Origin: Methanomassiliicoccus sp.
GTDB lineage: Archaea; Thermoplasmatota; Thermoplasmata; Methanomassiliicoccales; Methanomassiliicoccaceae
Assembly: GCA_016109435.1 (NCBI GenBank)
Contig: JAEILR010000004.1
Span: forward strand, 16,264-48,263
DNA length: 32,000 nt
Direction of reading: 5' to 3'
Of this stretch, positions 598-32,000 are shown piece after piece. Every line of letters begins with the position of its first letter. Within the stretch, counting starts at the first letter, position 1. Position numbers and translations under genes: made by a program. Under the pieces are notes generated by a model. It was not told the origin of the DNA and made no database searches. It was given only the letters and a program-made list of their open reading frames with translations.

Positions 598-1408
598 ATG
601 AAGTTGATCAGCGTCCGCCTGATGGTCGATCGGTTCAATGAGTGCTTCCGCTTCTACCAGGATGATCTGGGCCTGAAGGTCAAGTGGGGAGAACTGGACG
701 GGGACTATGCCTCGTTCTCCCTGGACGGCGAGGGATATCTCTCGATCTTCAGACGGGAACTGATGGCCAGGGACGTCCGCACCGGTCACCTCCCGGCCGA
801 TGCGGTGGCTCAGGACCGCTCCGCCGTCATTCTGCAGGTCGGCGATGTGGACACCGTGTGCCGGCGCGTCGCCGAAAGAGGGGTGCGGTTCGTGAACCCG
901 CCGACGGACTACCCCGATTATCGAACGGGAGCAAGAAAGCCCACGATTTCAATCGTGGATGAATTGCGACGGAGCGGTACTTTCGGACAACCCTCCTAAA
1001 GATGTTAATATGCTCTGGGCGATGAGTTGTCAGCCACTATACTGCCGCACTTCAATGGGCGTGCAAGTTCTGGCATCGAACATGCTTCCCTCGGAAGCAT
1101 GGTTGACCACGCTGACGCCAACGCCTCGTTCAACATCGCGCTGCGTCCTTCCTCGGAAGAAGGCGCTGGTCGATTGCACCAAGACAGAGATTGGTGCAAG
1201 GGCCGCATTGATACGCCCCGAGAGGCTCCGTCATGAACGACGACGACCTCAGAATCCCACGACTGAAGGTCGTGGGAATGTCAAGGGGATAAGAGCAGCG
1301 CACCTGCGCGATCCCGATGGCAATCTCATCGAGATCAGCATGCCCATGCCCAGGGAGGGATGGACGGCGGAGCTGAAGGAGGACACCGACCGCTTCCAGA
1401 AGGGATGA
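598..1408 (+). pseudogene. VOC (glyoxalase/bleomycin-resistance/dioxygenase) family gene interrupted by a ~364-nt insertion
   Basis: The N-terminal part (598-921) reads MKLISVRLMVDRFNECFRFYQDDLGLKVKWG...GVRFVNPPTDYPDY in frame 1. It then runs into unrelated residues and a TAA at 997-999. The conserved VOC C-terminus GIRAAHLRDPDGNLIEISMP... is in frame 2 from 1286 to the stop at 1408. Deleting 922-1285 (364 nt, 1 mod 3) rejoins the frames. Confidence 0.8.
922..1285 (+). mobile_element. Non-autonomous IS200/IS605-like element (PATE-type), ORF-less and highly structured; boundaries +/-3 nt
   Basis: It interrupts the VOC gene and is visibly lower in GC than its flanks. It has no TIR, no TSD and no credible ORF. 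Two similar same-strand subterminal hairpins are present: 941-958 (CCACGAT-ttca-ATCGTGG, 19 nt from the left junction) and 1256-1276 (CCCACGAC-tgaag-GTCGTGGG, 9 nt from the right junction). The left flank ends TTAT and the element ends TCAAG. Confidence 0.6.
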
Positions 1409-30965: not shown

Positions 30966-32000
30966 TCGTTCAGATCTTCCTTGGTCCAGATCTCCACCGC
31001 GGCGGGCTGCTTGGCGATGTTGCCCATCTTGGTGCCCACGATGGTGGCGATCTTGTTGTCCGCGGCGATATCCAGTATCCTCTGGGTGACTATGCCGTCG
31101 AACACCACGGCGTTCACTCCCTTGGCGCTGGTCTTGAGGGTGTTGACCAGGTCCCTGACCGGGACCTCCTTCATGACCTCGCCGGAGGCGTCCAGTATCT
31201 TGGCCTTGGAGGTGGCCGAGAGCTCGTTGATGATGGTCTTATAGAGCGCCTGGGCCTCCGAGAGCTTCTTGGTCGGCTCGGGCTCCGCAGGCTCCGGCTC
31301 ATAGGCCGCCACGGCCTTCTCCGGCAGCTCGCTCACCGGCTCCGCGGCGGGAAGCTCCTTGATCGGCTCGCGGGGCTCCCGGATCTCGCGCGGCTCGCGG
31401 CCACGGCGGTCACGGGGCTCACGGTGCGGGCGCTGGTCCCTCTCCGGGGGTCTCTCCTGAGGCCGTTCCCGGGCCTCGGCGGCCTCCTCGCGCTCCCTCG
31501 CCTGTTCCCTGGGCTGCTCCCTCGCCTGTTCCCTGGGCTGCTCCCTCGCCTGTTCCCTCGGCTCCCTGACCTGCTCCCGGGGGCCCCTCTCCTCGCGGTT
31601 CTCGGCGGCGGCCTTGCCGTTCTCCGAGGTCATGCCGTACATCTCCATGAACTGCTCCCCGGGGATCTTGTTGCGGAGGCACTTCATGATCTGCTTCTGG
31701 GTCAGCTCCTCGACCTCCATGCCCCGGGGGGCACGGGCCACGAAGTCGACCTCGGCCACCTGGAACAGCTCGCGGAGGATCAGCTCCCCGCCCCTGTCCC
31801 CGTCGACGAAGGCGGTGATAACCCTCTCCTTGCTGAGGTCCATGACCGTCTTGGGAACGTTGGTCCCCTCGACCGCGATGGCGTTCTTGATCCCCGACTT
31901 CAGCAGGTTAAGGACGTCGGAACGACCTTCCACCACGATGATGGCGTCGCTGTCCTGGACATTGGGCCCGGCCGGCAGGCGCTCCTTGCCATAGTTGATG
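30962..32000 (-). CDS. dnaG: archaeal DnaG primase (TOPRIM), C-terminal part; gene continues beyond the window end
   Basis: It has the TOPRIM core [27 protein letters not shown]...[16 protein letters not shown] and the conserved C-terminal domain [15 protein letters not shown]. The reading frame is open to position 32000. Confidence 0.9.
31493..31564. repeat. three tandem copies of a 24-nt unit inside dnaG
   Basis: CTCCCTCGCCTGTTCCCTGGGCTG occurs twice exactly (31493-31516 and 31517-31540), plus a diverged third copy (31541-31564). On the coding strand it encodes the PREQAREQ repeats. Confidence 0.85.

Follow-up and report, generated by a model that had tools for sequence, protein, structure and literature searches.

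A 364-nt insertion in a VOC/glyoxalase-family gene of Methanomassiliicoccus sp., very probably an internally deleted IS200/IS605-family derivative

The window analysed here is a 32,000-nt stretch (contig JAEILR010000004.1) of a metagenome-assembled genome (MAG) of Methanomassiliicoccus sp., and all positions refer to its + strand. A gene of the VOC/glyoxalase family in this window was split by an insert of 364 nt (922–1285). The insert is very probably an internally deleted, non-autonomous derivative of the IS200/IS605 family, with an IS608-like parent type that carried a Y1 transposase gene (tnpA) and tnpB. The family was assigned because the ends and a tnpB tail within the insert are homologous to those of a locus from Micrarchaeota (L031; L numbers denote fetched loci), which carries both Y1 TnpA and TnpB. 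Elements of this kind have been described before, the closest relatives on record being the haloarchaeal ISNph18, ISHwa24 and HqIRS54, the last a palindrome-associated transposable element (PATE).

Insertion into a VOC/glyoxalase-family gene

The two parts of the interrupted gene were delimited as follows.
598–921, + strand: 5' part of the split VOC/glyoxalase gene, annotated as protein P0004 (Pfam Glyoxalase, ungapped homologue alignment)
1286–1408, + strand: 3' part of the split gene, starting GIRAAHLRDPDGNLIEI, protein P0026 (Pfam match, homologue alignment, gene length)

Two open reading frames (ORFs; 556–999 and 959–1408) represented the two halves of a single gene. The 5' half lay in a frame open from 556, and its methionine at 598 was the start of the homologues. 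When position 921 was joined to 1286, the spliced protein (...PTDYPDY/GIRAAHLRDPDGN; here and below, a slash marks a junction or cleavage position) matched Pfam Glyoxalase from end to end (E 2.9e-15). It aligned without gaps across the junction with nine intact homologues, the closest at 73–77% identity. The spliced ORF of 447 nt had the length of the homologous genes in L062 and L002, and intact relatives encode a single VOC protein of 148 amino acids (aa). The gene is inactivated by the insertion, which accounts for two short ORFs in place of one VOC protein: the 5' fragment (P0004) and the ORF over the 3' region (P0026) are annotated as separate proteins of the Methanomassiliicoccus MAG. 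This annotation also substantiated the archaeal host proposed in an earlier note, which had been made from the DNA alone. Neither half showed further decay.

The junctions read ...CCCCGATTAT/CGAACGGGAGCAAGAAAGCCCACGATTTCAATCGTGGATGAATTGCG on the left and CCTCAGAATCCCACGACTGAAGGTCGTGGGAATGTCAAG/GGGATAAGAGC on the right, and the flanks joined without the insert gave the empty-site form GATTAT/GGGATAAG. The left flank ended in TTAT (918–921) and the insert in TCAAG (1281–1285), as the earlier note had read them; the competing ends at 1284 and 1285 are taken up below. Because the homologue alignment was ungapped and the spliced ORF measured 447 nt, the junctions showed neither a target-site duplication nor a loss of host bases, with the caveat that an end at TCAA (1284) would mean the gain of one extra G. 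Comparison of the first with the last 30 nt revealed no complementarity and no terminal inverted repeat, only the subterminal palindromes matching each other, so that the lack of repeats and duplications claimed earlier held on both counts. The GC content was 52–55% within the insert, compared with 60–67% in the flanks.

Subterminal hairpins

Two hairpins stood near the ends of the insert. On the left, CCACGAT-ttca-ATCGTGG (941–958) formed a 7-bp stem with a TTCA loop and was preceded by 19 nt (922–940). On the right, CCCACGAC-tgaag-GTCGTGGG (1256–1276) was followed by 9 nt (1277–1285) up to the junction. The spacing was therefore asymmetric, at 19 nt to the left tip and 8–9 nt to the right tip, and the hairpin search reproduced the positions and distances given in the earlier note. 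The features of both ends are listed below.
918–921, + strand: left cleavage and target tetranucleotide TTAT (CL), one base off the family TTAC
922–967, + strand: left end (LE), with a 14-nt leader, the left guide (GL) AAAG at 936–939, the left hairpin (IPL) at 941–958 and ATGAATTGC at 959–967, a layout common to related left ends
1252–1255, + strand: right guide (GR) GAAT, directly 5' of the right hairpin (IS608 GR; pairing of GR with the right cleavage site, CR)
1255–1277, + strand: right-end hairpin (IPR), TCCCACGAC TGAAG GTCGTGGGA, a 9-bp stem including T1255/A1277 (hairpin search, recurrence of the 21-mer)
1281–1285, + strand: right terminus, TCAA (CR, 1281–1284) plus G1285 (family rule versus frame restoration)

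Perfect hairpins with a stem of at least 8 bp and a loop of 2–8 nt were rare, with eight distinct ones in the 32 kb and four of these within the 364-nt insert. Only the left and right end hairpins among the eight carried the CCACGA arm. The pattern CCCACGA-N(3–9)-TCGTGGG, searched as CCCACGAN followed by a gap of 2–8 nt, had an expectation of 0.00 in shuffled sequences. The whole insert folded far more stably than shuffled sequences, with z scores of -4.5 (+ strand) and -4.3 (- strand). The loops of the two end hairpins (TTCA and TGAAG) were complementary to each other. The position of the CCACGA arm on the same strand, which had been put forward as an argument, carries no information, since any perfect stem reads alike on both strands. 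The orientation of the element, left to right on the + strand, was instead taken from the flanking motifs and the tnpB remnant.

The right loop of the insert (TGAAG, 1264–1268) and that of L053 (GAATG, approximately 366–372) were close to the reverse complement of the common CTTCA/TTTCA, with the stem unchanged. These unusual loops may have arisen by inversion of the loop within the palindrome.

The exact 21-nt right hairpin was found in 30 stretches of a species-representative genome collection, compared with less than one chance match by rough estimate. The hosts were nearly all archaeal (Micrarchaeota, Nitrososphaerales, Nitrosopumilales, Natrialbaceae) and the matches mostly lay at the ends of insertion sequences (IS). 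Many were located approximately 90–110 nt from a contig end, as with multi-copy repeats. Among L003–L032, IS ends of at least four archaeal lineages had this hairpin in common, and the identity of a TnpA recognition hairpin across phyla suggests horizontal spread or strong constraint. In the Nitrososphaerales MAG SPRUCE 323 (L006, L008, L014, L016, L018, L020–L026), the 21-nt hairpin was present approximately 90–110 nt from the end of at least 10 contigs, suggesting a high-copy element at which the assembly breaks off.

Guide and cleavage-site motifs

The motifs around the hairpins followed rules shared with related elements. Eight related left ends (L005, L027, L029, L020, L031, L034, L043 and L052) had the form TTAC/N13–15-AAAG-CCCAC..hairpin..GTGGG-ATGAA, and the window had TTAT/N14-AAAG-CCCACGA..TCGTGG-ATGAA. 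TTAC was recognized as the target because L043 and L052, two insertions of one element at different sites, had sequence in common only from TTAC onward. On the right, the insert read GAAT-hairpin-AATGTCAA, in agreement with IS200/IS605 right ends from archaea.

Of 37 right-end-like ends, 35 showed Watson–Crick complementarity between position 4 of GR and the final base of the TCAN at the terminus. The pairs were GAAT/TCAA (17, insert included), GAAG/TCAC (13, with at least 11 different flanks) and GAAC/TCAG (5). A relaxed pattern (GAAT, stem, N5, stem) that left the terminal TCAA unspecified gave 20 matches in the metagenome collection, and TCAA followed 8–10 nt past the stem in 16 of the 20; none of the 20 was a close copy of the window element. 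Since only GAAT and the stem had been specified in the search, the occurrence of TCAA in the GAAT set was an independent observation. GAAT-type right ends that occurred at several sites stopped exactly at ...GTCAA/.

In IS608, the cleavage sites TTAC (CL) and TCAA (CR) are separated from the hairpin feet by 19 nt on the 5' side and 10 nt on the 3' side (PMC3201880), values that the earlier note had given correctly, and the guides are AAAG (GL) and GAAT (GR) (PMC5934647). The insert shared with this Helicobacter pylori element both guides, the TCAA at CR, the hairpin distances (approximately 19 and 10 nt) and the lack of terminal inverted repeats and target duplications. The gene order tnpA-tnpB of IS608 also occurred in relatives of the window element. 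It differed from IS608 in its hairpin sequences and in its left site (TTAC in IS608), as well as in having no tnpA, only 44 tnpB codons and an archaeal host.

The tnpB remnant and the interior of the insert

Between the two ends, the insert consisted of the following parts.
968–1101, + strand: internal filler without similarity, including the AT-rich TAAAGATGTTAATATG (997–1012) and a perfect 9-bp hairpin (1081–1101)
1102–1236, + strand: 3' remnant of tnpB, with the last 44 codons VDHADANASFNIALRPSSEEGAGRLHQDRDWCKGRIDTPREAPS and a TGA stop (BLASTP, tblastn)

In translation, 1102–1227 (VDHADANASFNIALRPSSEEGAGRLHQDRDWCKGRIDTPREA) shared 64% identity with the L031 TnpB at its C-terminus (E 1e-17, BLASTP) and 91% with protein P0027 (E 2e-30), and the tail was still an open frame. 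The earlier statement that the insert has no tnpA or tnpB ORF held for tnpA and was incomplete for tnpB, of which the last 44 codons and the stop persist. A search with the 68-aa tail returned only short C-terminal TnpB fragments (60–119 aa) and no full-length close relative; the closest relative (L053) was cut by its 925-bp contig. With P0028 and P0031, the protein alignments seemed to reach further towards the N-terminus, but this was rejected as real similarity. The AT-rich stretch at 997–1012 might be the remnant of an archaeal TATA-like promoter, because an AT-rich stretch also followed the left end in L031 and L057.

L031 represented a full element with the order LE-tnpA-tnpB-RE (right end): a left hairpin, a transposase, TnpB and the same 21-bp right-end stem followed by AGGATGTCAG. 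Its tnpA encoded a Y1 transposase of 130 aa (Pfam Y1_Tnp, E 1.7e-40) and its TnpB contained a Cas12f1-like_TNB domain (E 4e-17). L056 also carried tnpA and tnpB, and a search for TnpA homologues yielded more than 7,700 proteins. Genes for TnpA and TnpB between ends of this type, which the earlier note had proposed to look for in the genome, were present together in L031; none was found in full in the 32-kb window. The tnpB of L031 (3165–3350) contained an in-frame TAG approximately 48 codons past its likely start (MILTFKIKHNKDF...), and this copy may itself be a pseudogene.

A conserved structured module at the 3' end

From the first base of the tnpB remnant to its right end, the insert formed a structured unit.
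1102–1285, + strand: 184-nt multi-helix structure of seven helices, resembling the scaffold of a TnpB omega-RNA (right-end RNA, reRNA) (RNAalifold, covariation, covariance model)
1102–1113/1162–1174, 1114–1129/1133–1147, 1175–1182/1191–1198 and 1200–1203/1215–1218, + strand: helices of the module
1222–1225/1247–1250 and 1229–1233/1241–1245, + strand: remaining helices, together with the right-end hairpin

The sequence from 1102 to the right end was 73–87% identical to the 3' 183–185 nt of L053–L056, L058, L060, L061 and L031. In an RNAalifold prediction with nine sequences, 49 pairs in seven helices were obtained, and 18 of the pairs had compensatory changes. Paired cells amounted to 95.5%, compared with 35–44% when the partners were slid by 1–3 columns, and the double-change pairs numbered 18 versus 1–5 in these controls. 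The observed covariation was not reached in any of 500 shuffles. The insert retained 44 of the 49 predicted pairs, and its own right-end hairpin was perfect. The structure was specific to the + strand, because G:U pairs occurred only there. A covariance model built from these sequences gave an independent full-length match in L057 (197.6 bits) and a single copy in the 32-kb window. Rfam scans returned no match, whether run on the whole window, on 850–1350 with E values as high as 10 or on eight related loci.

In the full-length relatives, the module overlapped the end of tnpB and reached the right end. Its position, strand and form resemble those of a TnpB omega-RNA, and a function as RNA may be presumed from this likeness. 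Similar structured modules, extending over the tnpB 3' end to the right end, are found in the ISDra2-type TnpB omega-RNA/reRNA, the sense overlapping transcripts (sotRNAs) and VNG_R0052 (PMC8612924, PMC10055086, PMC4615843). As in derivatives that bear omega-RNAs, the module was retained without a transposase, and the end hairpins had TTCA-type loops; it had neither a sequence nor a covariance-model match to any curated RNA family. PATEs often encode omega-RNAs (PMC10055086), and the PATE RNA VNG_R0052 is expressed in Halobacterium salinarum (PMC4615843).

At 1175–1198 of the window and the homologous positions of L031 and L053–L061, compensatory changes in an RNA helix forced paired amino-acid changes in TnpB (H-Q-DRD-W-C, H-A-DRD-A-C and H-T-DRD-V-C). 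In this helix inside tnpB, the RNA structure clearly constrains the protein sequence.

Relatives and described PATEs

PATEs are defined as too short to encode a transposase, without inverted terminal repeats or target duplications, and with near-terminal palindromes related to those of IS605-type transposons (PMC3119063). The insert had this anatomy: it was short, had neither terminal inverted repeats nor a target duplication and carried near-terminal palindromes. PATEs with C-terminal TnpB remnants have also been described (PMC3119063). The placement in the IS200/IS605 family as a PATE-type element, suggested in the earlier note, was upheld by the homologous ends, the GR/CR rule, the TnpA and TnpB of L031 and the tnpB tail.

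The closest described relatives, HqIRS54 and its parent-type transposons ISNph18 and ISHwa24, come from Haloquadratum walsbyi and from Natronomonas pharaonis (Dyall-Smith et al. 2011, PMC3119063). Their ends are given in Table S9 of that study as TTAC/GGCGGTGCGAGGAGAAAGCCCC...GGGATGAATC and ...GGGAATC...GGGGATGTCAA (PMC3119063). Aligned by motif, the left ends have TTAC/...GAAAG-CCC..hairpin..GGATGAA and the right ends GGGAATCC..hairpin..GGATGTCAA, the counterparts in the window being ...GAAAGCCCACGA..TCGTGGATGAA and GAATCCCACGAC..GTCGTGGGAATGTCAA. HqIRS54 measures 370–381 bp, compared with 364 for the window element, and both have no terminal inverted repeat, target duplication or capacity for a transposase. 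Differences concerned the host, a Thermoplasmatota methanogen rather than a haloarchaeon, the flank (TTAT, not TTAC), the extra G at the junction and the distance from the right hairpin to the end of TCAA (8 nt, compared with 10 in the HqIRS54 type). HqIRS54 has a documented copy number and mobility, whereas the window element is known from one copy and was compared by its ends and size.

Shortened derivatives were common among the relatives, with independent truncations in L054, L060 and L061 and internal deletions in L057 and L058/L059, and the breakpoints differed. Relatives of the 3' module were located in intergenic DNA. L057, from a Conexivisphaerales MAG (GCA_038728585.1), resembled the insert in its left-end motifs (GAGCAAGAAAGC...GATGAATTGC), its 3' module and its form as an LE-to-RE derivative (374 nt). 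It differed in its breakpoint, which left 115 tnpB codons, its hairpin stems, its GAAC/TCAG pair and its intergenic location.

Three further loci showed other rearrangements. In L058/L059 (2501–2862), an internal deletion joined the first approximately 40 tnpB codons to the zinc ribbon and C-terminal part, giving an ORF of 103 aa with a complete 3' module at the same locus in two independent assemblies. L054 (1960–2283) contained a 5'-truncated module of tnpB tail and RNA after an inverted right-end-like hairpin (GTGACGTCCT-CCCACGTC-TTTAG-ACGTGGG-CTTCC). This hairpin was of the GAAG/TCAC type on the other strand and abutted the stop codon of the upstream gene, and the locus may comprise two elements, one inserted into the other. 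L009 (2560–2615; Natrialbaceae archaeon A-CW3) carried a single-hairpin element of approximately 50 nt (AGAGGGTCGAGGAGAAAG-CCCACGACCTTCAGTCGTGGG-TGGATGTCAA), in which a left-end-type 5' flank with the AAAG guide was fused to a right-end-type 3' tail. It resembled the 52-bp 'terminal-only' PATEs of Dyall-Smith et al., described by these authors as products of hairpin-to-hairpin deletion.

Mechanism and origin of the short form

By analogy with the IS608 mechanism, a Y1 TnpA would bind both subterminal hairpins on the top strand. GL (AAAG) would pair with the TTAT in the flank and GR (GAAT) with the right-terminal TCAA. The top strand would then leave as a single-stranded circle and be pasted 3' of a TTAC-like tetranucleotide in a single-stranded target, a route that would produce neither duplications nor inverted repeats. 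Because tnpA and all but 44 codons of tnpB have been lost, any movement needs TnpA in trans, and such a supply would have to be presumed.

Several observations weigh against the reading as an IS200/IS605-family derivative. The left flank was TTAT instead of the TTAC of the eight related left ends, and TTAT together with the AAAG of GL would give a G:T pair at the cleavage base (fourth position). L057, whose left end was the most similar among the relatives, had the flank TTCT and likewise a T at this position, which hints that a T may be tolerated there in the sub-lineage. A later C-to-T change at 921 would be equally possible, because the homologues have TAC at that codon. At the right junction, the family rule places the end after TCAA at 1284, where the covariance-model match also stopped, and frame restoration places it one base further, after TCAAG at 1285; removal of 364 nt, not 363, yielded the 447-nt ORF of the homologues. 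The extra G may stem from slippage or an assembly error in the GGGG run, from a cut made one position later, or from a former donor site that contributed a base. Placement of the element one base to the left (921–1284) was rejected, as it left a TAG stop in the restored gene.

The same side of the balance holds several search results. Tblastn detected no other TnpB-like or TnpA-like sequence in the 32-kb window, and the 134 nt of filler (968–1101) had no homologue among the fetched loci (blastn, blastn-short, tblastn). Methanomassiliicoccus was not among the 30 genome-collection matches to the right hairpin, and the exact 30-nt right end had no match in the metagenome collection. The short form itself was found once in the 32-kb window, with no identical copy elsewhere in a limited search space. 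The right-hairpin loop was TGAAG, compared with YTTCA on the top strand in most relatives. The orientation of this loop (TGAAG instead of the family CTTCA) was dropped as a disqualifier, since right-end loops varied widely among ends obeying the GR/CR rule.

The single copy found is compatible with transposition of the short form as well as with a deletion in place. In the latter case, a full-length IS (tnpA-tnpB or tnpB only) would have been inserted and its core deleted later, so that the 364-nt form itself would not have moved and its capacity to be mobilised may be lost. We consider this origin within the same family to have not quite an even chance. It agrees with the single copy in all the sequence searched and with the deviation of both cleavage sites (TTAT for TTAC, an extra G past TCAA). 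It also fits the many independent truncations and deletions in L054, L057, L058/L059, L060 and L061, and core deletions in place are documented in haloarchaeal IS605-type elements (PMC3119063). However, both ends, guides and hairpins were intact, which leaves room for mobility; the size of 364 nt fits the mobile haloarchaeal PATEs (HqIRS54, 370–381 bp), and the open tnpB tail together with the undecayed VOC halves suggests a recent event. In a further variant, the short element would have persisted as a guide-RNA module in its own right, not as debris. The deletion in two independent derivatives (the insert and L054) stopped at most 7 nt from the first base of helix 1, all 5'-truncated relatives kept the 3' module whole, and the reading frame of the tnpB tail was open; even so, we regard this variant as unlikely.

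Readings outside the family fared far worse. An intron, either of the self-splicing group I or of the archaeal bulge-helix-bulge type, would leave the VOC gene expressed, and removal of exactly 364 nt does restore the frame. The insert is also highly structured, its flank ends in T and the insert itself in G, like the U that closes the exon before a group I intron and the G that closes the intron. Over 850–1350, however, no intron or other Rfam family was matched even at E values up to 10, both ends and the 3' 184 nt were homologous to the ends of tnpA/tnpB transposons, and relatives of the same module lay in intergenic DNA. With the Rfam scans empty, the readings as an intron, now effectively refuted, and as a known small RNA were dropped, and we give the intron next to no credence. 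An unrelated insertion with chance palindromes, or an assembly chimera, was judged just as improbable. The source is a MAG, in which misassembly is formally possible, but both junctions were base-precise against the homologues. Chance palindromes are contradicted by the shuffle expectation of 0.00, by the concentration of half of the strong hairpins of the 32 kb in 364 nt and by the recurrence of the exact 21-mer far above its rough chance estimate, and the homology results effectively refuted this reading as a whole.

Outside the insertion and unrelated to it, a tandem repeat of 12/24-nt period (GCTCCCTCGCCTGTTCCCTGGGCT, three copies, 97% matches) was located in ORFs at 31492–31578 of the window.

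Implications

An internally deleted derivative in Methanomassiliicoccus extends the ISNph18/HqIRS54-type lineage of IS200/IS605 elements from haloarchaea to this genus, and close relatives were present in Conexivisphaerales, other Thermoplasmata and Micrarchaeota. The pairing of guides and cleavage sites known from IS608 (GAAN with TCAN') held in 35 related ends, nearly all archaeal. The current understanding of IS200/IS605 elements is unchanged by the finding.

If the module were transcribed and TnpB present in trans, the guide would be the VOC sequence directly 3' of the element. Were the element indeed kept as a stand-alone guide-RNA module, a TnpB encoded elsewhere in the genome could load its RNA, cut empty alleles flanked by TTAT/TTAC and so enforce the retention of an insertion that has no transposase; the module could instead have acquired a regulatory role in the host. 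The uncurated omega-RNA-like structure of this archaeal TnpB clade is a potential RNA family with which guides of archaeal TnpB proteins could be found.

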